Source of the DNA: an uncultured virus (IMG/VR IMGVR_UViG_3300020577_013366)
Lineage: Duplodnaviria > Heunggongvirae > Uroviricota > Caudoviricetes
Strand: one strand, 5' to 3'
IMG/VR virus record: IMGVR_UViG_3300020577_013366
DNA: 64,000 bases
In this document: positions 4,543 to 41,022 of the stretch, in pieces
How positions within the stretch are numbered: position 1 is the first letter of the stretch
How the letters are laid out: every line of letters begins with the position of its first letter
Made by a program: the position numbers and the translations under genes
The notes under the pieces: generated by a model
Database searches by the model: none
Seen by the model: the letters and a program-made list of their open reading frames with translations, nothing else
Told to the model about the DNA's origin: nothing

Positions 4543-5310
4543 TCAGTGGAAGGTGGGCATGATCCCGTGGCGCTCGCGGACCGACGCCTGGAGGTCGGCG
4601 CGCGCGGTGGGGCTGTTCAGGTCGATCTCGCTGGGGGGCTTGGTCTTGAACTGGCGCTGGCCCTGGCCCTCGCCGCTACCCTCGGGGGCAGCGCGCTCTT
4701 GGGCGCCCTCGGCCTTGCCGCCGGTGTCGATCGGCTTGCGCTCGCCGGCGCCGGCCGGGGCCGGCTGCTTGAAGAGGAACGGCTCGGCCTTCTGGACCTT
4801 GGCCAGCGCCTTCTCGGTGTCGTCGGCGCCCGCGGCGAGCTCGCGCTGGACGGCGGCCTGGATGTAGCCGAGCGCCGCGGGGTTCGCCGGGGTCAGCGAC
4901 TTGGTGACGAGGTGGGCGGAGATCTCCGAGCTCAGTCGGGCGGCGGCGAGCTCGGCCTGCACGGCCTTCAGCTTCTCGCTCGCCTCGTCCGCCTCGGCGC
5001 GGGCCTTGGCGGTCTCGTCCATCTTCTCGCGCTCGGCCTTCCGGCTGGCCTCGGCGGCCTGGGCGGAGAGGGCGTCCTTCACCTTCTTCTCGGCGAGCTT
5101 CTCGGCGGCCTTGTTGATGCGGCGCTCCTCGGCGGCTTCCTTCTCGGCGGCCTCCTCGGCTTCCTTCGCCGCCTTCGCGGCGGCCTCGGCAGCGGCCTTC
5201 GCTGCCTGCTTCTGCTCGGGGGTCTCGCCTGCACCAGCTCCGGCGCCGGCCTTGCCGTCTGCGCCCTCGTCCTTGCCGTCTTTGTTCGCGTTCGCGTCGT
5301 TGTCAGCCAT
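4543..5310 (-). CDS. Capsid scaffolding protein
   Basis: Ala/Glu/Lys coiled coil with typical 'PFLFK' motif and Gly-rich tail; GGAG RBS. Confidence 0.8.
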   Translation of the reverse strand: MADNDANANKDGKDEGADGKAGAGAGAGETPEQKQAAKAAAEAAAKAAKEAEEAAEKEAAEERRINKAAEKLAEKKVKDALSAQAAEASRKAEREKMDETAKARAEADEASEKLKAVQAELAAARLSSEISAHLVTKSLTPANPAALGYIQAAVQRELAAGADDTEKALAKVQKAEPFLFKQPAPAGAGERKPIDTGGKAEGAQERAAPEGSGEGQGQRQFKTKPPSEIDLNSPTARADLQASVRERHGIMPTFH

Positions 5311-7238: not shown

Positions 7239-7459
7239 GCCATGGATCCATCATCCGGCGCACGCACGACGGTCAGGTGGCGCTCGTTCGCGGCTGGCCC
7301 CGGGGCTTCGGCGAACGGCATCCACCCGAACGCGACAACGGCAACATGGTGCGCCAGCGACGGGATGCCGTCGTTGATCATGTTCCACACGATGTCGTGC
7401 ACCGCCTGCCCCATCGGCCACATCTGCTCGCCCCAGACCAGCGTGACCTCCTGCATCAC
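7235..7459 (-). CDS. Hypothetical protein
   Basis: Overlapping start/stop with both neighbours. Confidence 0.55.
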   Translation of the reverse strand: MMQEVTLVWGEQMWPMGQAVHDIVWNMINDGIPSLAHHVAVVAFGWMPFAEAPGPAANERHLTVVRAPDDGSMA

Positions 7460-9249
7460 CCGACCTCGCCGCCAGCTGTCGGCTCCTGATCCTCGGCGCC
7501 GTTGTTCGCCGCCGCGCCGTCCTCGGCGGCCTTGTCAGCGCCGTCCTCGGCGCCGCCGAGATTGCCGAGGTCCAACGGCTCTTCCGCCTCCGCCTCTTCG
7601 TGGAGGCGATGCTGCTCCTGCTCCGCGTCGCGCAGGCCGGCAGCGGCGACGAAGAGCTCCGTCGCGGTCTGGAAGGAGAGGAGCTTGGCGCCCGTCGCGG
7701 TCGTCAGCGCGGTCGCCAGGTCCTTCAGGTCGGTCGGCGTCGGCGTGTCGTATGGCGGCCACACCACCCGCACCGACCGGCCCTCGCCGACCTTGTGCGG
7801 CCCGAGCTTTTCCTCCGGCTCGGGCGGCTTCGGCTTCATCGGCGGCGCGGCGATGGCTGGCGGGGCGGCCCCCTCATCACCGGGGTCTGGCGCATCCGGC
7901 TCTTCTGGCTCCTCCGGCTCGGGGGGCTCGACCTTGTAGACCCGGGGCGGGAGAACGATCATCCCGTCACCGGGATCGTCCTCCGAGGTGACGCCCCAGC
8001 CGCGCCCGAGGTTGATCCAGATCTCGGCGAGCTGCCGGATCGTCCAGGTCTGCGCCGTGCGGATCCGGTTCGCCCTGGTCTCCATCCCGCGTCGCAGCTT
8101 CGCCACCGCGACCCCGGACGGTGCACTGGTGATCGTCTCGCTCTCGGGCATCCAGCAGTTCACGTTCTTCAGCACCTGCGCCTGCATCCGGTCGGCGCTG
8201 TCCCAGCCCATCTTCACGCTGTCGCCCTTGGTCTCCAAGTAGGTGACCTCGCCGCCCTTGCCCACGCGGATCTCGTCCCCGGTGCCCTTGGCGAGGCGGG
8301 GGAACTGCTGCGCCATCGACATCGGGTCGTCGGCCCGCACCATCTTCGGCTGCGTGTTCGCCTTCGTCGCCTTCAGGGCGTGCGACTGGACGCGATCGAC
8401 CTCGTCGCACATCTCCAGGTTCTGCTGATTCAACAGGTCGTACTCGCCCTCCGGCGAGTGGGTCTTGCGCGTGTTCTGCACCCACACCACCGGGCACCTC
8501 CCGGCCTTGTGCTGGACCTGTTCCTCCACCTCGAGCGGGATGTTCTTGTCGTTGTCGAGCTCGACATCCTTGAACTCGATGTACTCGGTGGTGGTCCACA
8601 TGCGGGTCCGGATGCGGACCTTCGGGCGAGCGGTCGGGCCCTCCGTCGGGTCGGGGGCGACCTCCACCTTGTACTGGTGGATCACCTCGGCCGGCACCCA
8701 CCGCTTGCGGTTCGCCCACCGCAGCACCTGGACGGCGAAGCTCGGCAGCGTCTCGCAGTTCGGCTGGTTGGCGGTGATGCTGGGGATCATCACCGCCGAG
8801 CCGGTGGCGCCAGCGTAGTCGCGCGCCTCCTGGTGGGCGTCGAAGGTGCAGCTCTCCTCGAAGATGGCAGTGAGGTAGGCGGCCGTGTCGTCGTCGGCGG
8901 GGCAGAGCAGCGTCGGCGCGACGCCCGTGGTCAGCTCGGTGAAGCGGGAGACCACGCGGCGGGCGAGACCGGCGGGGGCATTCGGCCGGCGGCTGTCGTA
9001 GCTCACCCGCTGGATCTCGGAACCCCAGATGAAGCCCTTGTCCCGGTGCCGATCGGCGATGTAGCTGACCCCGGAGCCGCGGGATCGCCCCTGGAAGTCG
9101 GCGTAGCAGTAGTCGTGCTGGCTGCCCTCCCACCAGCGGTACAGGGTGCAGAGCTCCTGGTAGCGCGGGTCGGCGTTGCGGTCGTAGACGTAGACGGGGG
9201 GGAGCGACGCCTTTTCGGCGGGCGAGGCGGGCTCTTTGGCGTAGTCCAT
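7456..9249 (-). CDS. Portal protein
   Basis: 597 aa; 'H..GRCPVV' and 'SGVAV..L' SPP1-type portal motifs; acidic tail; heads capsid operon. Confidence 0.8.
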   Translation of the reverse strand: MDYAKEPASPAEKASLPPVYVYDRNADPRYQELCTLYRWWEGSQHDYCYADFQGRSRGSGVSYIADRHRDKGFIWGSEIQRVSYDSRRPNAPAGLARRVVSRFTELTTGVAPTLLCPADDDTAAYLTAIFEESCTFDAHQEARDYAGATGSAVMIPSITANQPNCETLPSFAVQVLRWANRKRWVPAEVIHQYKVEVAPDPTEGPTARPKVRIRTRMWTTTEYIEFKDVELDNDKNIPLEVEEQVQHKAGRCPVVWVQNTRKTHSPEGEYDLLNQQNLEMCDEVDRVQSHALKATKANTQPKMVRADDPMSMAQQFPRLAKGTGDEIRVGKGGEVTYLETKGDSVKMGWDSADRMQAQVLKNVNCWMPESETITSAPSGVAVAKLRRGMETRANRIRTAQTWTIRQLAEIWINLGRGWGVTSEDDPGDGMIVLPPRVYKVEPPEPEEPEEPDAPDPGDEGAAPPAIAAPPMKPKPPEPEEKLGPHKVGEGRSVRVVWPPYDTPTPTDLKDLATALTTATGAKLLSFQTATELFVAAAGLRDAEQEQHRLHEEAEAEEPLDLGNLGGAEDGADKAAEDGAAANNGAEDQEPTAGGEVG

Positions 9250-9336: not shown

Positions 9337-9406
9337 CAGCCCAGGCCGGGTACGGACCGGCGTCTCCCGCGAGTAGGGGCGGGTGTTCTCGCTGAACTAC
9401 CGAGCT
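9337..9406 (-). tRNA. Atypical tRNA-like RNA (8-nt anticodon loop CCCUACUC)
   Basis: Full cloverleaf: AGCTCGG/CTGGGCT, GTTC/GAAC, CCCGC/GCGGG, GCCGG/CCGGC; non-canonical D and T loops; no encoded CCA. Confidence 0.65.
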
Positions 9407-9436
9407 GGCCGTTTCTACGCCGGGTCGGCGGACGGA

Positions 9437-10087
9437 TCAACCTGCCATCTTCCGCGCGGCGATCAGCGTGGCGAGCGTGCTCAAGGCAGCCGGGCTGTCC
9501 TTGTCGCCCCAGTAGTTCAAGCGGTCGAGGTAGGCCGGGTGGTAGGCGATCAGCAACGCCGCGCCCTCCACGGTCATCGCCGGCTTCGGGGTGAACTCGA
9601 ATGGCCGCGGGAGCGACAGCGGCACGGAGAGCTCCTCTCCCATTTTCAGCGCGTGCGGCGACACGCACATGAGCGACCCCGCTGCGTAGGCTCCGAGGGC
9701 GACGATCACCCGCGGCGCGATCGCTATGAGTTGCTCGGTCAGGTGGGTGTGGCAGGTCCGCACGGTGGCGAGGCTGGGCTTGCCGTTGCGGGAGCGGTCG
9801 CCGGGCTGTCCCGGAGGCCAGCAGGCGACCGCGTTCGTGATGTAGACCCGCTGCTCGGGGAGGCCGGCGCGCTCGAGCAGATCGGTCAGGAGGCGGCCGG
9901 CGGCGCCGACGAAGGGCCGGCCCGCCGCGTTCTCCTCGGTTCCGGGCGCCTCGCCGACGAGGACGATACGGGCGGTGGGGCTGCCCCGGCCCATGACAGG
10001 GGCCTTGGCGGTCGAGCGGAGGGAGCAGGCGGTGCAGGCCGCAAGCGCGGCCGCGGCGTCAACGAGGGTCGGGCGGGGCTGGTCCAT
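9437..10087 (-). CDS. udg: Uracil-DNA glycosylase, family 4 (4Fe-4S)
   Basis: CxxC, GEAPG..E...GRPFVG.AG, ITNAV.C.PP, HPAY motifs. Confidence 0.92.
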   Translation of the reverse strand: MDQPRPTLVDAAAALAACTACSLRSTAKAPVMGRGSPTARIVLVGEAPGTEENAAGRPFVGAAGRLLTDLLERAGLPEQRVYITNAVACWPPGQPGDRSRNGKPSLATVRTCHTHLTEQLIAIAPRVIVALGAYAAGSLMCVSPHALKMGEELSVPLSLPRPFEFTPKPAMTVEGAALLIAYHPAYLDRLNYWGDKDSPAALSTLATLIAARKMAG

Positions 10088-10122
10088 GCCGCCACCGTGG
10101 GGCGGCGCGAGGCCGGCGTCAA
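10088..10122 (-). promoter_or_regulatory. Sigma70-like leaderless promoter of udg
   Basis: TTGACG-N17-CACGGT-N6-ATG. Confidence 0.5.
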
Positions 10123-10177
10123 CGCGGCGAACGATTGTGCGGATCCGTCTGGCCCGTGTCGGGCACTCTACCGTCGC

Positions 10178-10528
10178 ATGCGAACCATCACCGTCCACGA
10201 CATCCCCGACCTTCCCACCCCCATCGTCACCGCCCGCGACGACGCCGGACCCGGCGGCGCCCCACACCTGTACGGGATCGCCTGGACCGGAGGCGAGCTC
10301 GAGCTGCATTTCCAGGAAGGCCCCCGCGGGGAGGTCGGCGAGAACGGCATCACCGAGCTGTCGCTGGTCGCCGTCCTCATCGACAGGCTCGAGGCGTTCC
10401 AGCGCGGCCCATACGCCTCGCAGGACAACGCGCAGGCGCTCGCCCATCTCGGCGACACCCGCGAGGCGCTGCTCAAGCGCCACCGCGAGCGTCTTGCCCG
10501 CGGCGTCCAGGGTACGTCGGCGGTCTGA
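10178..10528 (+). CDS. tad1: Tad1-family anti-Thoeris/anti-CBASS signal sponge
   Basis: GPGGAPHLY...FQEGPR...NGI....L...LIDRLEAFQRGPYAS.DNA.AL.HL......L.R...R.ARGV.GT matches Tad1 as recalled. Confidence 0.85.
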   Translation: MRTITVHDIPDLPTPIVTARDDAGPGGAPHLYGIAWTGGELELHFQEGPRGEVGENGITELSLVAVLIDRLEAFQRGPYASQDNAQALAHLGDTREALLKRHRERLARGVQGTSAV

Positions 10529-11062
10529 TCACCGCGGCGGACGTCGGTGCCCGCGCGGCATCGTCACAGTGAACGACGCGACCCAGGCGTGCAGGGCCTC
10601 CACCCAGTGCCCCATCTCGTAGCAGATCTCCTCGTCAGCCCGACCGCCGTAGAACGGTCCCTCCACATATTCCATGACCTCGTGGATCTCGGGCTGCTCG
10701 GCCTGGAGGCGGCGGACAAGGGCGTGGGTGAGCTCGTGCGCGACGAAGCCGAGCGTGACGGTGTCCACGCACAGGTGCAGCTTGCCCAAGCACGGAACGG
10801 TCCGCTGCCCCGCCGCCTTTCCAGCCACGAAGCTGATGATGGTCGGTGCGGGCTGGAACAGGCCGCCGACGTGGGGTAGGCCCATGCGCTCGCGGAACTC
10901 GGCCTGGCGGAACCACAGGTAGCAGCGGACGAAGCACCGCCTCCCGTTGCTCGCCTTTAGCAGCGAGGGCAGGCGGCACCGAGCGAGGACGCCCCGCCGC
11001 TGGTCGCGACGGGGCACCTTCTCCGGCCGGCAGGCGTACCAGGTCTGCGGCGGGTACTGCAT
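10529..11062 (-). CDS. HExxH zinc-metallopeptidase-like protein
   Basis: VAHELTHA plus downstream DEEIC acidic motif. Confidence 0.6.
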   Translation of the reverse strand: MQYPPQTWYACRPEKVPRRDQRRGVLARCRLPSLLKASNGRRCFVRCYLWFRQAEFRERMGLPHVGGLFQPAPTIISFVAGKAAGQRTVPCLGKLHLCVDTVTLGFVAHELTHALVRRLQAEQPEIHEVMEYVEGPFYGGRADEEICYEMGHWVEALHAWVASFTVTMPRGHRRPPR

Positions 11063-11063
11063 G

Positions 11064-12227
11064 TCAGGCCGCGGTGGGGCTCAGCCAGGCGACGGCCTCG
11101 AGCAGGTCCATGTCGTGGTTGCCCACCGACACCTTCCAGGTGGGGCCGCCGTCCACGCGGCCGACCCGGAGCTCCCCCCACGGCATCCCGGCGCGGCTGT
11201 GCTCCGCGCAATCGACGAGGGCACCCTGGCGGATCCGCCCAGCCAGCGCTTTGAGCACGCTGCCGAGGCCGGCCACGTAGCCGTTGATGTGCTCGACGAT
11301 CTCGCGCTCGCGCACGTTGCTGATGTAGTTGTTTTCGCGGATCAGGTGCGCCCACGCGCTCCGCAGACCGGCCAACGAGTTGCCCTTGTACCCGTGGTCG
11401 TGGGTGTTGCTCGGCTCCATCGACAGGCGCAGGCCGTCGCGGTTGTTTGCGATCCATGCGGCGACCGCCTTGCCAGCCTCGAGCGTCGCCGACCCCGCCA
11501 TGCGGCGCATGGTGCTCGACAGGTTGTCCACGGCGCGGTGGTGGACGATCGCGGCCCCGGCGATGACGACGAGCTCGGACCGCTCGCCGGCCTGTGGGTA
11601 CGGGAGATCCACCTCGTACCGCTGCGGGACGCGCGTGTCGCCGCTGAGCGAGTGCTGGACGGCGGCGCGCTTGAACTCCGCCAGCTCCGGATGGAGGTCG
11701 CGCGCCAGGTGTCCGAAGCTCTGCGTGAGGCCCGACCGGCGGGCCCACGCATCGACGATCTCGAGCGCCTCGGTCTGATCCATGCCGCCGTAGGCCACGT
11801 CGATGTCCCTGGGGATGGGGGTCGGCAGGCAGGATGGGTCGGCGGCGAGCCGGCGGGCGGCCTTGGCCGCGCTGCCGAAGATGACGCAGACCGGCGCAGG
11901 GGCGGTGGTGATCAGCGTGATGTCGTAGCCGATCTCCTCCACCATCTCGGCCGAGAGGACGACGCCCTCGGGCTGGCGCTTGCGGAGCTGCAGAGCGATG
12001 GCGGAGTCGCCCGGCTCGTAGACCATGGTGATGCGGTTGGTGACGACGGGGACGCCGAGGACGGTCGCGAGCACCTGCGCGGAGCCGTCGTGGCCGATGG
12101 CGGAGGTCAGCTCCTTGTGGGAGAGCGCGTCCTCGGCGAGGCGCCGGGCCTCGGCGCGGCCGATTGTGCGGGTGACGTAGCGGAGGCCGGGGGTGTGGCA
12201 GATGGGAGCGTTCAGGAGGTACAGCAC
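11064..12227 (-). CDS. AcrIII-1 (DUF1874/YddF) ring-nuclease domain fused to a nucleotidyltransferase-like domain
   Basis: YLLNA...SAIGHD...NRI...R.PEG.VL...IGY followed by IFGSAA...PRDIDV. Confidence 0.8.
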   Translation of the reverse strand: MLYLLNAPICHTPGLRYVTRTIGRAEARRLAEDALSHKELTSAIGHDGSAQVLATVLGVPVVTNRITMVYEPGDSAIALQLRKRQPEGVVLSAEMVEEIGYDITLITTAPAPVCVIFGSAAKAARRLAADPSCLPTPIPRDIDVAYGGMDQTEALEIVDAWARRSGLTQSFGHLARDLHPELAEFKRAAVQHSLSGDTRVPQRYEVDLPYPQAGERSELVVIAGAAIVHHRAVDNLSSTMRRMAGSATLEAGKAVAAWIANNRDGLRLSMEPSNTHDHGYKGNSLAGLRSAWAHLIRENNYISNVREREIVEHINGYVAGLGSVLKALAGRIRQGALVDCAEHSRAGMPWGELRVGRVDGGPTWKVSVGNHDMDLLEAVAWLSPTAA

Positions 12228-12295
12228 GGGATTCTCGTTTCGATGGGGGAACTGATGGGGCAGGATTGCCCGAACGGGTCCGCTTGCGCGGCGGG

Positions 12296-12469
12296 TCAGG
12301 AGAGCAGGTAGAGGGCGCCGACGTAGATGCAGCACCACAGCGCGGCCGAACCGGTGACGATAAGGTGCCAGCGCGCGTCGAGCTCGTGGACGATGTAGAT
12401 GCCGACGAAGCCGACAAATGGCAGGGCGCCGCAGAACAGCATGACGTCGTAGGGAGTCGTGGCGGTCAT
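12296..12469 (-). CDS. Small two-TM membrane protein
   Basis: Two hydrophobic segments; ATGA overlap. Confidence 0.55.
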   Translation of the reverse strand: MTATTPYDVMLFCGALPFVGFVGIYIVHELDARWHLIVTGSAALWCCIYVGALYLLS

Positions 12470-12882
12470 GCTTCCTCCCGGCAGTCGGCGTCGAGCTCCA
12501 GATCGCCGGGGAAGGCTGGCCCCTCGCGCTCGGGGTCGCCGACGTTGCGCAGGTTGCCGATGAGCGCGCAGAGCACGTCGCAGTCGTCGGCGGGGATGAG
12601 GTCGTCTTGCGCCTCGCTGAGCTCGGTCAGCTGCACGCGCCCGAGGGCGATGCGGCACATGAGCTGGCGGGCCGGGATCTCGCTGGAGCGCTCGTCTCGC
12701 GGGCCGAACATCTGATCGAGCACTTCGTTGGCCAGGTCGATGCCGCGCCAGTAGTCGTCGCGCCACAGGACGCGATGCTTGCCCGGCGGCACCTTCGGGT
12801 CCGGCGGGTCGGCAGGATAGTGCTCGAGCGCCGCGGTGGCGCCGGCCCGGATGGCGTCGAAGTTGATGGGGTGGGCGGTCAT
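12466..12882 (-). CDS. Hypothetical protein
   Basis: MTAHPINF start, coupled overlaps. Confidence 0.6.
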   Translation of the reverse strand: MTAHPINFDAIRAGATAALEHYPADPPDPKVPPGKHRVLWRDDYWRGIDLANEVLDQMFGPRDERSSEIPARQLMCRIALGRVQLTELSEAQDDLIPADDCDVLCALIGNLRNVGDPEREGPAFPGDLELDADCREEA

Positions 12883-13046
12883 TCGCCCCTCCGGTCCAGC
12901 GCGGAGGCCACCATCAACGCGCCTGGGAGGCCCGAGAATTGCCCGATGAAGAGCAGGAGCGAGGTGATGTACGGCTCGGCGAAGCTGGCGACGACGCCCC
13001 AGATGCACATGGCGAGGCCGAGGTACAGACGCTGACGGCGGTTCAT
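12879..13046 (-). CDS. Small two-TM membrane protein
   Basis: MNRRQRLYLGLAMCIWG, hydrophobic, coupled overlaps. Confidence 0.55.
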   Translation of the reverse strand: MNRRQRLYLGLAMCIWGVVASFAEPYITSLLLFIGQFSGLPGALMVASALDRRGE

Positions 13047-13678
13047 ACGCGAATCTCCGCCGGCAGTGTGAGGACGAGGTTGCCGAGACGCACCTCCTTG
13101 GTGGCGCCGATGTACCGCACCGGCGCCTCTGGCATGTCCTCGGGGGTGAGATCGCGGATCACGACGACCCGGCCGCGGGCTCGGAGCCGCGCGGCGACAG
13201 CATCGGCGCGGGCGAGCGCCTGCTGCCGGGTGTCGCAGCCGGTGCTCTCGGCGTGGCGAAGGACATCGGCGCGGTCCAGCCCGGTCCACAGGCTGCGGAC
13301 GGTCACCCGCGTCCAGCTGACGCACCACGGGGCAACCTCGAGGACGAGCTCCTCGGTCGGCGCCACCGCGGCCACGATGCGATCGAGCCACGGCGCGAGC
13401 GGGTGGGCGCCGAGCGGCTCGCAGCCCTCCCAGAGCTGGAACAGGCGGCGCAGGCCGAGCCAGGCGAAGGTGTGCCGGACGGCGGGGAGGAGGGGGCGCT
13501 CGGCCACGGGCTGAAACGGGCGCTCGGCGACGCGCTGCTCGGGAGCGGAGATGGTGACGCGGCGGCTGTCCGCGGTGACCGTGAAGTGCTCGTGCAGGAG
13601 GGTGCTGGGCACGGCGCGAGCTGGGCGAGGTTCGGGCTGGATGTCGGCGAGGAGGCCGGCGAGGAGGTCGATCTGCAT
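13043..13678 (-). CDS. Hypothetical protein, first gene after strong promoter
   Basis: ORF with overlap to next gene. Confidence 0.6.
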   Translation of the reverse strand: MQIDLLAGLLADIQPEPRPARAVPSTLLHEHFTVTADSRRVTISAPEQRVAERPFQPVAERPLLPAVRHTFAWLGLRRLFQLWEGCEPLGAHPLAPWLDRIVAAVAPTEELVLEVAPWCVSWTRVTVRSLWTGLDRADVLRHAESTGCDTRQQALARADAVAARLRARGRVVVIRDLTPEDMPEAPVRYIGATKEVRLGNLVLTLPAEIRV

Positions 13679-13779
13679 GTTGTTCTCGTGGGCCGAACCA
13701 GGCCCGGCCAGGGCGCAGAGGAGTAGTCGCAGCTCGGGGGCAATCGATCCCTCGGGCGTGTCGATTTCCCGACCCGGCG

Positions 13780-13820
13780 AAAGTAGGCGCTCCTCGCGTC
13801 CGCGTCAACTATTTATTTTC
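13780..13820 (-). promoter_or_regulatory. Strong sigma70-type early promoter with UP element (copy 1)
   Basis: GAAAATAAATAG-TTGACG-N17-TACTTT; 17 bp identical to 31422-31438. Confidence 0.8.
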
Positions 13821-14208
13821 ATGTTTCGCCGAGGTCGCCCAGGAGCCTGGCGAGCGCAATCTGGGTCGCGGCCAGCTCGGCATGCGGGTGGCCACGGTCC
13901 TGGCCGGCAGCCTTCAGGCGGGCGACCTCGGGCTCGATGTGGGCCAGCCGGCGCTCGAAGGTCCGGATCGCCAGCCGGAGCTCCGCCGGCTTGAAGCGCA
14001 CCGGCTCCCCCGGGATCATGGCGACCGCCTTGCGCAGGGCGGAGGCGCCGAGCCGAGCTCGGCGTGCGGCCCCGAGGATGGCCTGGGCATCGGCGATCGT
14101 GAGGTACAGGCCGCGGTCGGTGAGCCGAGGACCGTCCGCCCCAAGCTCCCGCGCCTCGGCCAACATCTCCTCGTCCGACAGGCCCTCGGGGTCGCGCGCC
14201 ATGTGCAC
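13819..14208 (-). CDS. Hypothetical protein
   Basis: Helical ORF in minus-strand operon. Confidence 0.6.
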   Translation of the reverse strand: MHMARDPEGLSDEEMLAEARELGADGPRLTDRGLYLTIADAQAILGAARRARLGASALRKAVAMIPGEPVRFKPAELRLAIRTFERRLAHIEPEVARLKAAGQDRGHPHAELAATQIALARLLGDLGET

Positions 14209-14211
14209 GGG

Positions 14212-14736
14212 CTACTCGTCCTCCGCGTCGTCGGGCAGCGGGCCGTACAGGGCCCGGCGGCGGACGACGGTCAGGCTGGCGGCGTGCTGCTCGATGGGCT
14301 TGGGCCAGACCCTCCGGACGGTCTGGCCGGCCTCGGGCGCCTGCACGTCGATGACCCCTGGCGGCTTGGGGCGATGGACCACCGGAGCGTTCCCGGCGGG
14401 GCGCGAGGCCAGCTGAGCCTTCAGGCGCATCAGCTCGGAGCTGAGCGCCTGCACCTTCCGCTCGGCATGCAGCCGGCCGTTGCGCTCCCGCTCGATGCGC
14501 TCGGCGTCGTCCTCCACCTCATCGAACAGCCCGCCTGCGGGGTCCTGCTCCCACGCTTTGCGGATGGCGATGCTGCCCGAGGCGGTGACCTTGGCCGGCT
14601 CGAACAGCGTGTGGATCGGGTCCGTGTTCGGGTCGAGCCCGAGCAGGTCGCAGGTGGCCAGCCAGCGGCGGGCGTAGTCGCGGGCGAGCTCAAGGTCGGC
14701 GAGCTCGTCTGGGGTGATCGGCGAGGTCACGGGCAC
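14212..14736 (-). CDS. Hypothetical coiled-coil protein
   Basis: ORF in operon. Confidence 0.6.
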   Translation of the reverse strand: MPVTSPITPDELADLELARDYARRWLATCDLLGLDPNTDPIHTLFEPAKVTASGSIAIRKAWEQDPAGGLFDEVEDDAERIERERNGRLHAERKVQALSSELMRLKAQLASRPAGNAPVVHRPKPPGVIDVQAPEAGQTVRRVWPKPIEQHAASLTVVRRRALYGPLPDDAEDE

Positions 14737-17018
14737 CTCGCCAGCTCGCTGCGCATCTTCGCCACGTCCATCTGGTCGATGTCGCTGCTGGCGAACCCGC
14801 GGGTGAGCAGGGCGTCCCTGAGCGCGACGATCTCAGCCGAGCTTGTAGGGGCGTCTGCAGCCGACCCACCCTCCCGCGAAAGCTCCACGCACATCGGCCA
14901 TTTTGTGCAGGCGCGTCCGCGGTAGTTCGCCAGCGAGCGCATGTCCTCCACCATGCGCTTGCCCGCAGCCTCGATGTCGAGCTGCGCCAGGTCCACGCTG
15001 ATATCCGCGGCGGTCGGGCAGTCGGCGCTGGCCTGCAGGGCGGCGAGGTTGCTGACGAGGGTGGCGAGCTGGCGGACCCTGGCGAGCGTCGCGTTCCAGG
15101 TGTCCTCGGTGTTGCCGACTTCCAGCCTGATGAGCCGGAGAACCTCCTGCGCGCGCTGCAGCAGAAATCCGGGCGAGTGGATGACGGTGACACCGTGCCG
15201 CTGCTTGTGGTCCTGCTCGAACGTCAGGACGGCCACCACCTCCTCCAGGATGGTGCCGAGCCGCGCGCCGCTGTGGTTCGTGGCGAGATAGTGGGCGACA
15301 GCGCCCGCGGCGAGCTGACCGCGAGCGCCGTCCTGCTTCACGAAACCCGCCAGCGAGGTCGGCGGGTCCGCGTGCTGCGGCCAGCCGAGCACGTTGCAGA
15401 TCTCCACCCACCGGCGGGCCTGCTGCTTCTGCTGGGTGCGCTCGCGACCAGCACGCTCTGCCGCAGCGACGACCTGACGGTGCCGCGAGTCCTCATCCGC
15501 CAATTTATTCCGCAGCACCTCATTCGTCTGCTCCAGCTCTGCCGCAACCTCGCGCAACTGGTCGCCTTCGTTCGGTCCGGCTTTGTCGAGCAGCTCGAGC
15601 AGGTCGTGGACCTGGCCGGTGAGCGAACTGCCGGGGACGCGCAGGCGCGGGTGCTCGGCGAAAAGGAGCTTGATGTCCTCCACCTGCTGCATGGCCGCGG
15701 TCGCCCGCATGACCACCGCATCGGGGTCCATGCCGGTGCGCCAGCCGAGGCGCTCGAGCGTGGTCTTGTGCGCGGCGACAGTTTGTTCGGTGAGCATCTC
15801 CGCATCCTTCGCGCGAGCATTTGCCTCGTTTTTTTGGTGGCGCATGGCCTCGTAGACCGACTGGTTGATGATGGCGCCAGGGGCTGGCTCGCGCGCCCAC
15901 AGCAACGCGAGAACGTCGTGGAGATCTGGCTGGGTCCTGGCGGAACTGCCTGGTTTGAGCTCGCCCAGCGCTGCGCGGAGCGTGTCCTGGAACATCTGGC
16001 CGCCACCGTGGGTGTCGATGAAACCGGCGATATCGCCAGGAGGATCCTTCGTGGCGCAGATCCCGAGAGTGGCGCAGATCGACTCCCACCGATGGGTCTG
16101 CGTGCTCATCCAGCGGACCATTTCCACTTCGTCAACGAGGTTGTGGCGGAGTTTTGGGTCGATCGATGCGATGGTGGCCAGCTTGGCCTCCAAATCTTGT
16201 GTCTGCTTGGCCCGCTTCGCGGCCCGCTGGAACACATCCATCGGATCGTCGCCTGGGTGGTATCCGCAGAGCCACAGCGCGTGCCCGACCTGCTCGCTGG
16301 TGAGCGACCATTCTCCTTCGCCGCTGAGCACACCCAGAAGGTGTCGCCACGCGCTGCGAATCGCAGACCCCGGTGATGTGAAGTCGGCCGACACGTGCTC
16401 CTCATGGGTCCATGTCCACGCGCGCGTGGCCGGGGCGACGTGGAGCCTCCTGCCAACCGGCATAGCCCCTTGCAGTAGCATGCACAGGTCCTCGTCACGT
16501 ATCTGGGTGGGGGAGCCGATCGACTGCGCCGCGAGGGTCGCCAGCCGCAGCAGCCGTGACTTCCCGGCGGCCTTGTCGGCCTCCTCTTGCTCGGCGAGCT
16601 CGGGATGGGTCGGCAGCAGGGCCTCGCGCAGCACCTTCGAGCTCTCGGCGATGACGGTGGCGAGCCGACCCATGGCGGCGGTGTGCTGGGTGAGCCGCTC
16701 GGCGACGCCCTTCACCATGACCTCGGCGAGGGCGACCTCCGTTGGGTGGGGGCCGCTGCTCAGGTCGAAGAACGGGCCGAGGGTGTTCTCCGCGAACCCG
16801 GGGAAGGTAGCGAGCTGGCGCAGGTGGCCGATGCTGGGGGCGGTGTGTTGGTTCAGATTCAGCGCCTGCGCCGCGAGCCTCCAGCGGATGATCGGCTGGA
16901 GGGCGGCCTGGTCGAGCTCGTCCCAGTCGATCTCGTCGGCGGGGTCGAAGCCGATCGCTTCGAGGAACAGGCGGAGCTCCGGTGGAAGCGTGGGGTGGGT
17001 GACAGGTTCGGGCGTCAT
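14727..17018 (-). CDS. Large helical/coiled-coil protein with internal duplication
   Basis: GAGGAG RBS before MTPEPV; repeated RW..IC..LG....DPP...AGF motif. Confidence 0.7.
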   Translation of the reverse strand: MTPEPVTHPTLPPELRLFLEAIGFDPADEIDWDELDQAALQPIIRWRLAAQALNLNQHTAPSIGHLRQLATFPGFAENTLGPFFDLSSGPHPTEVALAEVMVKGVAERLTQHTAAMGRLATVIAESSKVLREALLPTHPELAEQEEADKAAGKSRLLRLATLAAQSIGSPTQIRDEDLCMLLQGAMPVGRRLHVAPATRAWTWTHEEHVSADFTSPGSAIRSAWRHLLGVLSGEGEWSLTSEQVGHALWLCGYHPGDDPMDVFQRAAKRAKQTQDLEAKLATIASIDPKLRHNLVDEVEMVRWMSTQTHRWESICATLGICATKDPPGDIAGFIDTHGGGQMFQDTLRAALGELKPGSSARTQPDLHDVLALLWAREPAPGAIINQSVYEAMRHQKNEANARAKDAEMLTEQTVAAHKTTLERLGWRTGMDPDAVVMRATAAMQQVEDIKLLFAEHPRLRVPGSSLTGQVHDLLELLDKAGPNEGDQLREVAAELEQTNEVLRNKLADEDSRHRQVVAAAERAGRERTQQKQQARRWVEICNVLGWPQHADPPTSLAGFVKQDGARGQLAAGAVAHYLATNHSGARLGTILEEVVAVLTFEQDHKQRHGVTVIHSPGFLLQRAQEVLRLIRLEVGNTEDTWNATLARVRQLATLVSNLAALQASADCPTAADISVDLAQLDIEAAGKRMVEDMRSLANYRGRACTKWPMCVELSREGGSAADAPTSSAEIVALRDALLTRGFASSDIDQMDVAKMRSELARCP

Positions 17019-17050
17019 GCGGTTGGTCTCCTCGGCCGGCGTTCGGCCAT

Positions 17051-17128
17051 GGGTCGCATGGTGGCGGCGCCGGGGGCGAGCGTCAACGGGCTTGACGGCG
17101 GGCGCGGGCGTCCGCAGGTTCGAGCGGC
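17051..17128. promoter_or_regulatory. Back-to-back divergent sigma70-like promoters
   Basis: CGTCAA-cgggc-TTGACG core; minus TTGACG-N17-CACCAT, plus TTGACG-N17-CAGGTT. Confidence 0.55.
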
Positions 17129-17497
17129 ATGCCACCCATCCCGTATTCGTGCTCCGCCTGTCTCGCCCCCATCATCGCCTACAAGCCCCAGGACGACCTG
17201 TGCAAGAACTTCGTGGCGAAATGCCGATGCACCGCCGTGATGCTCGATCTGCTGACGCCGATGGATAACCGAGGCACCGCCCGCGCGTTCAACGTGTCGC
17301 GCCTCGAGGAGGTCTGGGGTCGCTTCGCCGGTGTCCTGCTTGATCAGGAGCGGTGGGTGGAGCCGCCGAAGCCGTGCTACCGCTGCAACTTCGAGGATTT
17401 GGAGGCCAACGTCGCGGCTTTCAATGCGGGCAAGGTGCACCTCCCCGGCGCCCACACCTGCGGGCTCGACAGCCGCCACCAGCCCGCCGCGAGCTGA
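17129..17497 (+). CDS. Cys-rich zinc-binding protein
   Basis: CxxC, CxC, CxxC, HxC motifs. Confidence 0.6.
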   Translation: MPPIPYSCSACLAPIIAYKPQDDLCKNFVAKCRCTAVMLDLLTPMDNRGTARAFNVSRLEEVWGRFAGVLLDQERWVEPPKPCYRCNFEDLEANVAAFNAGKVHLPGAHTCGLDSRHQPAAS

Positions 17498-17499
17498 CC

Positions 17500-17661
17500 A
17501 TGTTCAAGCTCCGCCTCGCCTGCGCCCTCCGCCTCCTCCCGTTCCTCGGCCCGCTGCTGATCGAGCGCGACCTCCTGCGGGTGAAGCTCCTCGCCACCGA
17601 GCTCGAGGCCGATGTCCTCCGCGCGCAGCTGGCCCGCGAGCGCCGGCCGGTGGTGCTGTGA
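17500..17661 (+). CDS. Small hypothetical protein
   Basis: Hydrophobic N-terminus plus coiled coil; GTGA overlap. Confidence 0.5.
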   Translation: MFKLRLACALRLLPFLGPLLIERDLLRVKLLATELEADVLRAQLARERRPVVL

Positions 17662-17969
17662 CCAACCCGGACGGCTGGCACCGCGGTCGCGGCGGCTGGG
17701 CGCTGTTCAAGCTCGGCTCCTGCGTGGCGCTGGTCGAGCCGGAGGGCGCCTCCTACCGCTGGACGGTGGCGCTCGGCGAGGCCGTGGACCGCCTCGAGGC
17801 CAACCCCACCACGAACGGCACCGCGGACAGCCCGCTGCTCGCGATGGAGCACGCCTCGGTCTGCTGGTCGAGCTTCTGCGACCGCGCTGTCATCTGCGGC
17901 AGCCTCTGCGCGGACCTGCATCAGCTCTGGGCGTCAGGTCCCACCAGCCCCGCCCCGGCTCTGCGGTAG
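17658..17969 (+). CDS. Hypothetical protein
   Basis: GTGA overlap with upstream gene. Confidence 0.5.
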   Translation: MTNPDGWHRGRGGWALFKLGSCVALVEPEGASYRWTVALGEAVDRLEANPTTNGTADSPLLAMEHASVCWSSFCDRAVICGSLCADLHQLWASGPTSPAPALR

Positions 17970-18269
17970 CGCGTCGATCGGGTCGGTCTTGGGCCGCGTG
18001 TTCCTGGGCTTCGTCACCGGCCGCCCGCCGGCTGCCGCGTTCATCGTCGCCGCCTGGATCGCCATGCCGAGCACCTGAAGCGCTCCGACGAGGTCGGGCA
18101 TGTGCTTGTTCACGGCGCCCCGGACCCACCACCCGACCAGCACGATCGCGCACGCGGCCGGCGACCCCTGGATCGCCGACATCATCCACTCGGGGATCTG
18201 CGGATCTACCACTGGGGCCACGAGGACAGCGTACCGGAGGCCCTTGATCTGGTCGAGGCGAGGCTCCAC
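17934..18269 (-). CDS. Small membrane protein
   Basis: Central hydrophobic segment. Confidence 0.45.
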   Translation of the reverse strand: MEPRLDQIKGLRYAVLVAPVVDPQIPEWMMSAIQGSPAACAIVLVGWWVRGAVNKHMPDLVGALQVLGMAIQAATMNAAAGGRPVTKPRNTRPKTDPIDALPQSRGGAGGT

Positions 18270-18396
18270 GCTGGCGCCCGTGCGGTTCTGGCAGATCTCG
18301 ACCTACGGTCGCGTGGCTGCGCCCGCTGCCGGCGACGGCGGGGCCGATGGCGCGGAGGTAGCGGCGGACCCGCTCGGAGACGTCGAGGCCCACGGC

Positions 18397-19089
18397 TCAG
18401 CCGCCCCGCGGGGTGTTGGTGTCGCAGTCGTCAACGTAGGAGTCATCGGTGCGCCGGGTACAGCGCGGGCAGACGCCATCGAACTGCGCCACGACGAACA
18501 GGCACCCGCAGATGCACCGGATCGAGCCAACCGGATCACCGCCGGGAACGCGCTCGCCCAGCATCGCCGTCGTCGCTGCCTTGTGGTCCAGCGCCGCCGC
18601 GAGGCCGTAGATCGGCGTCCCGCCCACGAACACCACCGGCTTGCCGTCGACGCCCCAGCAGGTCTCCAGCACGCACTCGAAGGGGAAGACGCCGTAGCAC
18701 GCCTCCGCGGCGTCCGTCCACTCGCCTTGGTGGCAGGACCAGCCCGTCTCGCTGGCACCGCGCTGGCGACCACACGCATTGCACGGGCCCGCGCGGTGGA
18801 CGACGCGGGCGAGCAGCGTGCAGTCGCGGTGCGGCATGCCCAGCGGCGGCTCCTGCAGGTCGAGCAGTACGTCGTGATCGAGCACCGCCGGCCGACAGGG
18901 TCCGCCGCGCAGGTCCTCGTGGTCGATGCCCCAGACCCGGCCAAAGCCGATCGAGCAGTCGGCGTCCTGCGGCGGGTCGGCGGTCGAGTTGCCGGCGTGG
19001 TAGGTGAACTCGATCTCGGCCCAGCCATGCGGGCAGGCGGCGAAGATGGCGGAAAGCGTCGGGGCGCAGGGGAGGTTTTGCCAGGTCAT
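18397..19089 (-). CDS. Cys-rich hypothetical protein
   Basis: Multiple CxxC pairs; ATGA overlap. Confidence 0.6.
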   Translation of the reverse strand: MTWQNLPCAPTLSAIFAACPHGWAEIEFTYHAGNSTADPPQDADCSIGFGRVWGIDHEDLRGGPCRPAVLDHDVLLDLQEPPLGMPHRDCTLLARVVHRAGPCNACGRQRGASETGWSCHQGEWTDAAEACYGVFPFECVLETCWGVDGKPVVFVGGTPIYGLAAALDHKAATTAMLGERVPGGDPVGSIRCICGCLFVVAQFDGVCPRCTRRTDDSYVDDCDTNTPRGG

Positions 19090-20120
19090 GATCGGTCCTT
19101 CGATGCGTAGATGTAGCCGCAGTCCCACGCGCGGTGGTCCTCGGATCCTTCGGGGTATGGGTTCGCGTCGCGGGCCCCAAGGTGCTCGACGAATTGTCGG
19201 CGCATGATCACCAGCGGGCGGCGCCGGCCAGAAGGATGCCGAGGCCGGCGGGCGCGGGTCACGGCGACGCCGCAGCGGGTGTGCGGCGCGTCGCGCCCGG
19301 CGACGAAGGCCGGGGTGCGCCACAGGTTGTACTGCTCGATCTCCACGATGAAATGCCACCGCCACGTGCCATACGGGGCCTTGAAGCAGTCCCAGCCGCC
19401 GTGCTCGTAGCCGAAGTTCGCCAGGAATCGCTCGGCCTCCGCGAGCATGCGCCGGAGTCGGGCTTCCCAGCGCGGCGTATCGTGCTCGGCCGACGATGCT
19501 GCGCGGAACTCCATCAGCCAGCTCCATAGCCGAAACGAGGGCTTGTGCGCCTGGCTGGCCGCCCGCACGGCCAGCAACGTCACGAGGCCGGCGCGGGCCT
19601 CAGCCATCCCGGGGGCGGCCACGAGTTCGGCCTCCTTGGCCGCGCGCGCGACCAGTTCGGCCTGCGCCGCCGCAACGTGCTCGGCGACCCACGACCACCG
19701 CTTGTCGTCCTCGTCGAGATCCACGAGCGCTTCGGCGAAGGACGCCCACTCGTCCGGGTAGTCCAAATCCGGCTGGTGGTCCTCGAAGTGTTCAAGCTCC
19801 TGATCAACCCCGTATTCCGTCAGCGAGCCGATGAGCGAGTCGCCGCATACCTCGCAGTACGGCGGCGAGTCGTGCTCGGTGCCCCAACCACCATCGAGGA
19901 ACAGGGCCGGCTCGTCGTCCTCGTCTCCGCGCTGGTCGGGGTGCGCCTCGTAGAAATCGGCGATCGCTGACTCGGCGCACTCGCGGCAGAAGTCGGTCGC
20001 GGCGTCGTAGGGGAAGCCCTTCACGTCCTGCGTGCCACCGATCCAGTGGCATGGCAGCCGGACGCGCGCACCGGTGCTGCGCTCGCAGATGAACTCCAGC
20101 AAAGCCTCGCGCTCGCTCAC
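19086..20120 (-). CDS. Protein with Zn-ribbon-like N-terminal domain (paralog of 54966-55658)
   Basis: PCHWI...FCRECAE...LDGGWGTEHDSPPYCEVCG..L.GSLT.YG...ELEHFED. Confidence 0.7.
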   Translation of the reverse strand: MSEREALLEFICERSTGARVRLPCHWIGGTQDVKGFPYDAATDFCRECAESAIADFYEAHPDQRGDEDDEPALFLDGGWGTEHDSPPYCEVCGDSLIGSLTEYGVDQELEHFEDHQPDLDYPDEWASFAEALVDLDEDDKRWSWVAEHVAAAQAELVARAAKEAELVAAPGMAEARAGLVTLLAVRAASQAHKPSFRLWSWLMEFRAASSAEHDTPRWEARLRRMLAEAERFLANFGYEHGGWDCFKAPYGTWRWHFIVEIEQYNLWRTPAFVAGRDAPHTRCGVAVTRARRPRHPSGRRRPLVIMRRQFVEHLGARDANPYPEGSEDHRAWDCGYIYASKDRS

Positions 20121-21364
20121 GACCGGTCCGCCTTGTACGCCGCCTCGCGCTGCGCGGTGTGCTGCTCGGCCTCGTACCGCGCGACCTGCTTCGCGGCGAA
20201 CATGATGCGGGCGGCGGTGAGGTACGCCTGCCCCTCAGCAGCCGCCACGGCGCGGTCGATGCCGTCGACCATGTCGTCCTCGCTCAGGACGACCGTGCTG
20301 GCCTTCTCCGCCAGCACCCGGAACAGCCCCTCGGGTTTGGCGATGCCGTCGAGCAGCAGGCCGCGGAGAGCGTCTGCCGCATCCCGGGGTGTCGGCCCCA
20401 CCGCGACGGGGTCGCGGCCGATGGCGGCCTCGAGCACCTTCCGGACCTCGGCGAGCTCCCGCGAGTCGCGGACGTGGCCGGCGAAGGTGTCCGTGGTGTC
20501 GGCGTCGCCCGGGCCGGGCTCGGCGATGTACTCGAAGCGGCGGGCGGCGATGTCGCGGACCGCCTTCCTAAACTCGGTTTTGCCGAGCTCGGTATCGTTG
20601 GGATCGAGCCGCTCCAGCTCGGCGAGCAGGTGCCACAGGCTGGAGGTCGTGATCACCGCCTGGTCGGCGAGGTCGCTGGCCTCGCGCAGGGCGGTGTGGA
20701 GCGCCTCCATCTGGGGCGGGATGTCGCCGGAGAAGGCCCCGCGCGCGGCCGCCAGCTTCAGCAACCGCAGCGCCGCGGACGGCCCGTCCTCGCCTCCATG
20801 CGGCGCGACGGCCTCGGGGTCCACCTTGTATGAGCCGTCCGCGTTGTTCGTCGAGTGATGCTCGAAGATGTATTCCCCGAGCCTGTCCACGGCGGCCAAC
20901 AACAGTTCCACCCCGGTCGCATCGGCCCCCGTTCTGGGCGAGAGCACCAGCCGCTCGAGCAGGTACTTGGCCTGCTTCCGGCGCCCCTGCTGCGCGGGCT
21001 CGGGCATGTCGGCGAAAGTCATCCACGGGCGCGGCGGGTCGAGCTTCACCACCGTCCAGCCGCGATCGACCGCGGTGCGCTCGCACTCGTGGATCGCCTG
21101 CGCGAGCTGCTCGACCTCGCCATCGGTGACCGGATCGATGCGGGCGTGCAGGATGGCGCCGACGCGGTAGCGCTCGAGCAACTCGGCGGCGGTGTTCAGG
21201 CGGCCCTTCAGGGCGTCGCCGGTGAGGTTGACGAACTCGGTGAAGGGTTGGGCCTGACCGGCGACATGGGCGAGCGTGGTGCCGGCGGCGACGCTGGGGC
21301 GGGAGCTCTCGTGGTAGAGGGCGGCGAGGAGGGCGGTGGCGGGGGATGGCGTGGGCGACTGCAT
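20117..21364 (-). CDS. Hypothetical protein with tandem RyR-like repeats
   Basis: Two HE..R..V..G.T...P...F......A..GR...A..LLER units. Confidence 0.6.
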   Translation of the reverse strand: MQSPTPSPATALLAALYHESSRPSVAAGTTLAHVAGQAQPFTEFVNLTGDALKGRLNTAAELLERYRVGAILHARIDPVTDGEVEQLAQAIHECERTAVDRGWTVVKLDPPRPWMTFADMPEPAQQGRRKQAKYLLERLVLSPRTGADATGVELLLAAVDRLGEYIFEHHSTNNADGSYKVDPEAVAPHGGEDGPSAALRLLKLAAARGAFSGDIPPQMEALHTALREASDLADQAVITTSSLWHLLAELERLDPNDTELGKTEFRKAVRDIAARRFEYIAEPGPGDADTTDTFAGHVRDSRELAEVRKVLEAAIGRDPVAVGPTPRDAADALRGLLLDGIAKPEGLFRVLAEKASTVVLSEDDMVDGIDRAVAAAEGQAYLTAARIMFAAKQVARYEAEQHTAQREAAYKADRS

Positions 21365-21477
21365 GCGGTGTTCCTTGGGTGCCCTGCGGAGGGCGTTCGA
21401 TCATGGGATGATCAGATTCTTCCTGGCGCCTGTAAGCACCCACTGGCGCCAGCGCAACCGCATGTCCCGATAGACCT

Positions 21478-21855
21478 TCATGCTGGCGAAGCTGCCGTCG
21501 TCGAGTGGGCGATATCTCTCCTGGTCAGCGATTTTCCCCTGGAGTTCGCTGATGAGGCGCTCTTTGAGATCGGACCCGTTCGGCGACACCGGAGGTCGCG
21601 GCATGTCCTCGGCCCGGTCTTGAACGCCACCCCGATGAGCACCTCGCCCTCGCGCTGGACGACGAGCGTGTAGTCGCCGACCACGAGCCGGATGAACGGC
21701 TCCCTGGTGTTCCCCATGAGCAGCAGCAGGCCCTTGAGCATGTCATGCCAAGAGCCATCGCCGGATAGCTCCAGGTGCGGGGTGTGGGTTCCGGCGGGGC
21801 CGAGGATGGCAGCGAGGACGGCGGGGCAATTTGCGATGTTGTCGGGGATCTGCAT
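21478..21855 (-). CDS. Possible roadblock/profilin-like protein
   Basis: Leaderless promoter TTGCGC-N17-CACCGT-N7-ATG; secondary-structure pattern only. Confidence 0.4.
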   Translation of the reverse strand: MQIPDNIANCPAVLAAILGPAGTHTPHLELSGDGSWHDMLKGLLLLMGNTREPFIRLVVGDYTLVVQREGEVLIGVAFKTGPRTCRDLRCRRTGPISKSASSANSRGKSLTRRDIAHSTTAASPA

Positions 21856-21897
21856 GGCTCGCACGGTGGGTCGCCACCGCTTCGGGCGCAAGGTCAG

Positions 21898-23684: not shown

Positions 23685-23930
23685 ATGGCCAACGAAACCG
23701 CCCCCACCAAACCGTCCTTCGTCTCCGAGCTCGTGAAGCGCACCGCCGCCACGCTGCCGCCGGAGATGCAGGCCGCCGCGCTCTCGCCCGGCACGGACCT
23801 GCATACCATCCTGTTCGCCACCGCCACCATGATCGAGCTCGCCCAGCAGACGCCGGGCCCGACCTCCGAGAAGGCCAAGGCGTTCCAGGCCGCCCGCGCC
23901 GCCGAGGAGGCGGCGAAGGCCAAGCCCTAG
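23685..23930 (+). CDS. Hypothetical protein
   Basis: Good codon usage; divergent from previous gene. Confidence 0.55.
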   Translation: MANETAPTKPSFVSELVKRTAATLPPEMQAAALSPGTDLHTILFATATMIELAQQTPGPTSEKAKAFQAARAAEEAAKAKP

Positions 23931-40774: not shown

Positions 40775-41022
40775 GGCGTGGCCTCGCGCATCTTGGGGTC
40801 GAAGGCGATCACCGGGAAGGCGCGCCCGGGGTGCAGCTTCGCCTTGCCCCTGGCGAGATCCTGTATCAGCGCGATGTCGACCTCGCACACGTCGCTCTCG
40901 CCATGGCACTTGACCTCGATGCGGACGCGCTTCTCGAGCGGGAGCTCCGTCCAGGCCACCTCATCGATCTTCAGGCAGCAGACCGCGCACAGCGGTCGCA
41001 GTTCCTCGTGCCAGTCGATCAC
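40771..41022 (-). CDS. Small Zn-binding protein
   Basis: CAVC...CHG; GTGA overlaps. Confidence 0.55.
   Translation of the reverse strand: MIDWHEELRPLCAVCCLKIDEVAWTELPLEKRVRIEVKCHGESDVCEVDIALIQDLARGKAKLHPGRAFPVIAFDPKMREATP

Follow-up and report, generated by a model that had tools for sequence, protein, structure and literature searches.

A conserved phage fusion of an AcrIII-1-type ring nuclease to a family-specific C-terminal module, possibly a highly divergent nucleotidyltransferase

A gene on the minus strand of a 64,000-nucleotide stretch of DNA from an uncultured virus (IMG/VR record IMGVR_UViG_3300020577_013366; the whole stretch is called the window below) encodes a protein of 387 amino acids that joins a known anti-CRISPR enzyme, a ring nuclease of the DUF1874/AcrIII-1 type, to a conserved and family-specific partner domain, which may be a very divergent nucleotidyltransferase (NTase). 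As an overall picture, we see an even chance that the protein is a phage ring nuclease with a C-terminal module containing a diverged Pol-beta-type NTase core, and that this module provides a second anti-defence activity. AcrIII-1 is a model case of a viral enzyme that overcomes immunity by destroying a second messenger, and the conserved fusion described here suggests that some phages couple the destruction of cyclic tetra-adenylate (cA4) to a second activity. Study of it could bring to light unfamiliar anti-defence chemistry or an unfamiliar means by which a ring nuclease is regulated or delivered, and the nucleotide-processing enzymes could gain from it a very divergent branch or a fold not seen before.

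The fusion gene and its family

The coordinates of the gene and of the features discussed below are collected in Table 1. The preliminary description of this locus had given the bounds 11064–12227, which comprise the gene and its stop codon, since the TGA lies at 11064–11066. It had also reported that a DUF1874-like N-terminus runs in frame into about 280 further residues, and this is borne out: both parts lie in a single open reading frame (ORF), and the architecture is kept in all 14 of the homologues recovered. The start at 12227 agrees with the family alignment, in which the homologue N-termini read MLYLLNAP or MSTLHLLNAP; a longer ORF from a GTG at 12338 (424 amino acids) was rejected, as the start of the homologues corresponds to 12227. 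At third codon positions the ORF has a GC content (GC3) of 0.92, in a window of 70% GC, as expected for a real coding sequence. By translation, the motifs fall at residues 42–47 (SAIGHD), 64–66 (NRI), 84–91 (RQPEGVVL), 116–121 (IFGSAA) and 139–144 (PRDIDV). A small ORF at 12296–12469, encoding a hydrophobic peptide of 57 residues, precedes the fusion gene and ends about 70 nucleotides upstream of it, and neither a sigma-70 promoter nor an intrinsic terminator was seen near the gene. In JGI/IMG there are three contigs with the fusion protein, of up to 75,202 nucleotides.

The fusion is real and conserved. Among 5.8 billion protein clusters, 14 further proteins were found (E values from 1e-109 to 4e-72, 40–53% identity, 380–475 amino acids), every one of which carries PF08960 and aligns over 85–99% of the query. 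Fifteen other cluster representatives share the architecture at 34–54% identity, which together with the window protein makes 16. All 15 aligned sequences run collinearly through the junction (TLI[TE]T.PAPV) and the C-terminal region. When the C-terminal 285 residues were compared by phmmer with all 1.84 billion representatives, five matches were obtained at E <= 0.001, four of them members of the fusion family and the fifth a 43-residue stretch of a protein of 2069 amino acids (E = 2.9e-4). A profile built from eleven C-terminal regions matched 12 proteins, all 12 with PF08960, including one new member (P0020). Taken together, the phmmer and profile results indicate that, at the sensitivity of HMMER, the C-terminal region is known only in fusion with a ring nuclease.

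Other collections yielded no further case of the C-terminal region. In GenBank phages, 31 records match the protein, each covering no more than 27% of it, that is, the DUF1874 part alone; all seven GTDB representative-genome loci with DUF1874 are stand-alone, and the C-terminal region occurs in none of the seven. Scans of IMG/VR with the family alignment and with the members P0014, P0013 and P0008 found no other members of the fusion family, and a metagenome scan found at least one N-terminal fragment (L008). The preliminary description knew of no account of such a fusion, and our full-text literature search likewise found none, supplements, which may list domain architectures, being outside its scope. 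AcrIII-1 has been counted in 36 of 28,114 phage genomes, and the fusion goes unmentioned in the passages available from that paper (PMC12409355).

Table 1. Positions of the fusion gene, its domains and conserved motifs, and the adjoining downstream gene in the window
Feature	Positions	Strand	Basis or remark
Fusion coding sequence, 387 amino acids (P0003)	11067..12227	minus	GTG start at 12227; TGA stop at 11064-11066
DUF1874/AcrIII-1 (Crn2) ring-nuclease domain, residues 1-107	11907..12227	minus	PF08960, phrog_5063, PDB, Foldseek
SAIGHD motif, residues 42-47	12087..12104	minus	translation
His46 codon in SAIGHD, counterpart of SIRV1 gp29 His47	12090..12092	minus	alignment
RQPEG, residues 84-88, putative counterpart of the mobile loop over cA4	11964..11978	minus	residue number, inferred
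Residues 108-235, first sub-domain of the C-terminal region, candidate for a diverged NTase core of the Pol-beta type	11523..11906	minus	DSSP, hhalign, weak NTase rows
G118-S119, where strand VCVIF ends and a helix starts	11871..11876	minus	15/15; DSSP E113-117, H119-129
D141-I142-D143 on a beta strand	11799..11807	minus	alignment; DSSP E141-147
D177-L-H179-P180-E181, D177 being the candidate third carboxylate	11685..11699	minus	alignment; DSSP E175-178
Residues 236-387, second sub-domain of the C-terminal region, chiefly helices plus a small terminal sheet, without a family match	11067..11522	minus	
Next gene downstream, 177 amino acids, HELTH (HExxH) zinc-protease-like motif	10529..11062	minus	ATG 1 nucleotide past the fusion stop

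The N-terminal ring-nuclease domain

By sequence, fold and catalytic residues, the N-terminal domain is clearly a DUF1874/AcrIII-1 ring nuclease. The preliminary description had recognised it from the motifs SAIGHD, NRI and R.PEG.VL, all of which are present in the translation, and had named a failure of the N-terminus to match DUF1874 as grounds for giving up its interpretation; DUF1874 was matched both by profile and by structure comparison. PF08960 (STIV_B116-like, formerly DUF1874) covers residues 2–102 over profile positions 1–100 of 101 (E = 1.7e-19), with a score of 70.3 bits against a curated cut-off of 26, and is matched by all 15 family members. The same domain is matched by phrog_5063 (E = 1.4e-19) and by a PADLOC model named Csx16 (E = 3e-17). 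Among PDB sequences the best match is AFV3-109 (2j6b, E = 1.3e-14), and the other matches include STIV B116, the Marinitoga Csx1-Crn2 protein (8y7f, 8y6z, 8y7g), SIRV1 ORF114 (2x4i) and the entry for the AcrIII-1–cA4 complex (6scf).

Structural comparison leads to the same assignment. The AlphaFold2 model of the full-length protein, for which the 15-sequence family alignment was the input, has a mean predicted local distance difference test (pLDDT) score of 88.4, with values of 82–96 across residues 1–110. Compared with the PDB by Foldseek, this model gave 16 matches at E <= 0.001, and all of those listed at that level are DUF1874 structures, the top match being 2j6b (E = 1.2e-8, template-modelling score TMt 0.87, root-mean-square deviation 1.8 Å over 112 columns); 6scf was matched with a TMt of 0.76–0.79.

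According to the passages available from 10.1101/778746, His47 of SIRV1 gp29, which is absolutely conserved, serves as general acid, the H47A substitution reduces catalysis by more than 2500-fold, and AcrIII-1 binds cA4 at the dimer interface, where loop 82–94 of SIRV1 gp29 closes over the ligand. Judged from the alignment, H46 of the fusion protein corresponds to this histidine; it is invariant (15/15) and is aligned to the SAIGH of AFV3-109. R84, Q85, P86, E87 and G88 are likewise invariant in 15 of 15 sequences, and the RQPEG loop that they form would, by its position only, correspond to loop 82–94. By analogy with the rest of the family, the fusion protein would be expected to cleave cA4 and to have an anti-CRISPR role.

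The protein is also predicted to form a homodimer at full length, with an interface score (ipSAE) of 0.65 compared with 0.18 for the best control; of the proteins solved as one-chain pairs, 20 of 30 reach the mark used for such predictions, against 1 of 23 among those solved as single chains. The dimer runs agree in at least 76% of contacts, with a partner pLDDT of at least 81. The predicted interface comprises residues 7–21, 104–112, 147–153 and 184–187, the last two ranges lying within the C-terminal region. Since DUF1874 dimers have already been solved, the pass may reflect likeness to known structures, and the prediction suggests only that the added domain would be compatible with the usual DUF1874 dimer, and nothing beyond this.

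A conserved site in the C-terminal region

A separate model of residues 108–387 has a mean pLDDT of 89.1 and a predicted template-modelling score (pTM) of 0.79. In the model, the first C-terminal sub-domain runs from the strand VCVIF through G118-S119, a helix and a variable loop to the strand D141-I-D143-V-A-Y-G, and continues with a helix, a short helix, the strand A-R-D177-L, the residues H179-P180-E181 and a beta-rich stretch. Across the 15-sequence alignment, G118, S119, P139, D141, I142, D177, H179 and P180 are invariant, and E181 is present in 14 of the 15. Identity among family members over the C-terminal region is 34–48%, and the invariance of the site despite this divergence argues for selection on a functional site. 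Given the strong selection at this Gly-Ser/Asp/Asp/Asp-His site, metal and nucleotide binding by the C-terminal module is probable, as is a second reaction catalysed by it. The Gly-Ser pair and the DxD motif are 21 residues apart, with insertions in some members. In two members, P0014 and P0015, the loop that links the GS helix to the DID strand is lengthened by an insertion of about 50–80 residues, which indicates that it tolerates large additions.

Evidence for and against a nucleotidyltransferase core

The core of Pol-beta NTases has the signature strand–G[GS]–helix–strand([DE]h[DE]h)–helix–strand(carboxylate). In the fusion family the hG[GS] element is represented by the invariant VCVIF-G118-S119 at a strand/helix junction, and the [DE]h[DE]h element and third carboxylate, in the expected order of sequence and strands, by D141-I-D143-V and then D177. 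When the first 100 residues of the C-terminal region were compared by hhalign with 19 NTP_transf_2 domains from five genomes, P values of 0.001–0.0017 and probabilities of 15–21% were obtained, and the alignment places GS on GS and DIDV on the DxDh strand of NTP_transf_2. Of 400 queries with shuffled columns, one attained the real score of 23.6; the null distribution had a median of 9.4 and a 99th percentile of 16.7. Bona fide NTase families, represented by equally small profiles and compared with one another, gave P values no better than 0.014 (NTP_transf_2 vs ANT(2'')-like) and 0.031 (NTP_transf_2 vs AbiEii). A language-model search with residues 108–200 against named clusters pointed in the same direction, as seven of the nine rows shown are NTase-type families (Aminoglyc_resit twice, DUF6036, Poly_A_pol_cat, NTP_transf_5, DUF2204 and NTP_transf_2) with scores of 0.82–0.86, which count as leads only. 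The weak rows of the Foldseek search include the human CCA-adding enzyme, the minimal nucleotidyltransferase (MNT) 7ae9_H and two phage proteins named nucleotidyltransferase. Other enzymes with a DxD motif, namely archaeo-eukaryotic primases (AEP) and the HAD, Toprim and GT-A groups, were set aside informally on motif order and the lack of fold matches.

A number of observations weigh against this assignment. No Pfam NTase family was matched at E <= 10 by the whole protein, by its C-terminal part or by the 15 members, and no NTase was found when the family profiles were compared with all PDB sequences. In hhalign, the comparisons of the C-terminal domain with ANT(2'')-like proteins (6 sequences) and AbiEii (4 sequences) stayed in the noise (P 0.04–0.09). 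In the hhalign comparison with NTP_transf_2, the reversed-template control reaches P 0.007, so that test has little resolving power. Furthermore, the hhalign and language-model signals are not independent, as both largely measure the same GS/DxD motif over again. D143 is present in 14 of the 15 sequences and is replaced by asparagine in P0010. Minimal NTases have a shorter spacing between GS and DxD than the 21 residues seen in the fusion. As for the proposed anti-CRISPR role, the phage has not been linked to any host with a type III CRISPR system.

Weighing both sides, we consider the chance of an NTase-like core in the first C-terminal sub-domain to be slightly better than even, and that of an active NTase to be somewhat lower. 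The Pol-beta assignment made in the preliminary description finds weak support in the GS and DxD motifs, the order of strands and helices and the motif-level profile alignment, but no Pfam NTase family and no significant structural match was found for it. The activities that it had suggested for the protein, namely the making of decoy nucleotides, the repair of RNA ends, the nucleotidylation of a host target or a cA4-gated NTase, are speculative. The comparison by domain that it had proposed came out in a similar way, with a DUF1874 fold for the N-terminal domain but no significant Foldseek match for the C-terminal model.

Proposed mechanism and rival explanations

Under our preferred reading, that of a ring nuclease joined to a diverged NTase core, the ring-nuclease domains would dimerise, bind cA4 at their interface and cleave it with His46 as general acid, and the removal of cA4 would switch off the cA4-activated type III CRISPR effectors of the host. 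The first C-terminal sub-domain would most likely retain a much-diverged Pol-beta-type NTase core, with Mg2+ and a nucleotide bound at G118-S119, D141-x-D143 and D177, and the dimer would thereby gain a second, nucleotide-dependent anti-defence activity.

The most serious alternative, though one that we regard as doubtful, is that the C-terminal 280 residues form a new fold unrelated to NTases, perhaps a non-catalytic one, that the GS/DxD likeness is coincidental, and that the ring nuclease works unchanged. Such a domain might bind a host defence protein or act as a sponge for another signal nucleotide, it might set the oligomeric state, or it might serve in delivery with the DNA in the virion. 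The general failure to find relatives is in line with this, as neither sequence nor fold comparison gave a significant match to an NTase and the region is confined to the fusion family in the phmmer search of 1.84 billion representatives. NCBIfam gave nothing for the fusion protein, and PADLOC gave only the N-terminal Csx16 match. For the C-terminal model, Foldseek found no PDB or BFVD match at E <= 0.001, wider fold searches (VIA) found nothing significant, with no NTase in the 50 rows of the wide search, and the best structural matches are weak and heterogeneous; in the ESM Atlas, residues 108–387 had nothing above 0.89, with structure TM scores of 0.29 or less. The position of the gene in the terminase-portal block and the presence of residues 147–153 and 184–187 in the predicted dimer interface are also in keeping with this alternative. 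However, the strictest conservation in the C-terminal region falls on acidic, His and Gly-Ser positions that are expected of a metal-nucleotide site, the order of these motifs on strand-helix-strand elements is that of NTases, and the hhalign alignment to the NTP_transf_2 motifs beats 399 of 400 column shuffles.

Two further explanations were considered. The protein could be, by analogy with Csx1-Crn2, not primarily an anti-CRISPR but an effector under cA4 control or a switch that limits itself: binding of cA4 at the DUF1874 dimer would gate the C-terminal enzyme, and cleavage of cA4 would reset it. The predicted dimer, which sets part of the C-terminal domain beside the DUF1874 interface, is compatible with such gating, but we find it quite improbable: the gene lies in a structural and packaging region of a phage and not in a CRISPR locus, CARF, HEPN and SAVED domains were not detected in the fusion protein, and the C-terminal region is present in 0 of the 7 GTDB DUF1874 loci. 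The fast turnover of cA4 by AcrIII-1, as given in the available passages of PMC12409355, would also suit destruction of the signal over sensing of it. Slightly less probable again is a decayed and inactive NTase remnant that has been kept as a scaffold. Extreme divergence from all NTase profiles and the asparagine in one member at the position of D143 could be read in this way, but G118, S119, D141, D177, H179 and P180 have remained invariant among sequences with 34–48% identity, which points to selection acting on a working site.

MNT antitoxins neutralise HEPN toxins by nucleotidylation. A more specific version of the NTase proposal, which would mirror this, is a two-pronged anti-CRISPR protein that removes cA4 and at the same time uses ATP for MNT-like AMPylation to disable cA4-activated HEPN ribonucleases (Csx1/Csm6) or another defence protein. 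We think this unlikely, if somewhat less so than gating or decay. If true, it would be the first enzymatic anti-CRISPR aimed at signal and effector of type III immunity alike, as well as the first anti-defence enzyme of the NTase type tied to cyclic-oligoadenylate signalling.

Comparison with known systems

The N-terminal 105 residues resemble AcrIII-1 proteins (SIRV1 gp29, AFV3-109, STIV B116 and YddF) in sequence and fold, and share with them the catalytic histidine, the RQPEG loop, the homodimer (here predicted) and the setting of a viral gene. Where solved structures or GenBank phages match, the protein stands alone and is about 105–140 residues long, whereas the fusion adds 280 residues. 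The only other DUF1874 fusion that we found in print is Csx1-Crn2 of Marinitoga (8y6z, 8y7f, 8y7g), which likewise joins a DUF1874 ring nuclease to another enzyme domain. There, a CARF-HEPN ribonuclease precedes Crn2 in the chain, and the gene belongs to a type III CRISPR locus of a cellular genome. In the phage fusion, by contrast, the partner is C-terminal, no CARF or HEPN domain was detected, and the neighbouring genes are those of a phage.

Compared with minimal NTases (MNT, PF01909), CCA-adding enzymes, ANT(2'') and TENT5, the C-terminal region has no significant sequence or fold match. Set against Pol-beta-fold NTases in general, it differs in the longer spacer between GS and DxD, which is then followed by a large family-specific extension, beta-rich and helical. 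A local similarity over 63 columns connects the helical sub-domain (D..W..IDxY..G) with the Leptospira LIC_12936 family (PF28267; 10lm chain a1, LEPBI_I3081), which consists of secreted proteins of 239–271 residues that do not have the GS/DxD region. The similarity is not significant (HMM E 0.005–0.006; hhalign probability 38%, P = 3.3e-4, 63 columns) and may be due to chance. The aligned stretch of LEPBI_I3081 has no match in the copy of Pfam used, and a literature search found no paper on LIC_12936.

Genomic context

The window is phage DNA. A large terminase (21898–23502, minus strand; phrog_38, E = 4.5e-37) and a portal protein (7456–9249, minus strand; phrog_64, E = 5.1e-11) are encoded in it, a scaffolding-like protein (4543–5310) lies on the same strand as the fusion gene, and RecE/RecT-like proteins, helicases and methyltransferases are found on that strand farther upstream. 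The terminase is 21–29% identical to that of any GenBank phage (Roseobacter/Lentibacter podophage group) and the portal has no tblastn match in GenBank phages at E <= 1e-5, which together place the phage in an undescribed lineage. Between terminase and portal there are about 12.6 kb of co-directional ORFs without a family match (9400–21900, minus strand), and the fusion gene lies in this block. The same block, which is an unusual place for accessory genes, contains an ORF of 802 amino acids at 14727–17135.

The next gene downstream of the fusion, that for the protein with the HExxH motif (Table 1), is probably co-translated with it, since a single nucleotide lies between the fusion's stop codon and its own ATG, and the two may be functionally linked. 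Its product has no match in Pfam, PHROG, NCBIfam or PADLOC. After it, and directly upstream of the portal, comes a 348-residue homologue of family-4/UdgX-like uracil-DNA glycosylases (9437–10483, minus strand), of which residues 135–323 match TIGR03914 (E = 1.4e-37) and PF03167 (E = 9.5e-29), both below the curated cut-offs, and which has an unmatched N-terminal extension of about 130 residues.

No tRNA genes were found in the 64 kb. Elsewhere in the window there are two genes for DNA methyltransferase-like proteins (D12 class N6-adenine; phrog_359) as well as a DUF3268/Topo-I zinc-ribbon protein (23927–25437, minus strand, and 60263–60811, plus strand), all of which likely have anti-restriction or DNA-modification functions. 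SLOG domains are nucleotide-binding modules that occur in conflict systems, and a protein of 387 amino acids encoded at 39746–40909 (minus strand) combines a SLOG domain of the YspA/cpYpsA type (PF10686, E = 1.4e-6) with DUF4326 (PF14216, E = 3.7e-11).

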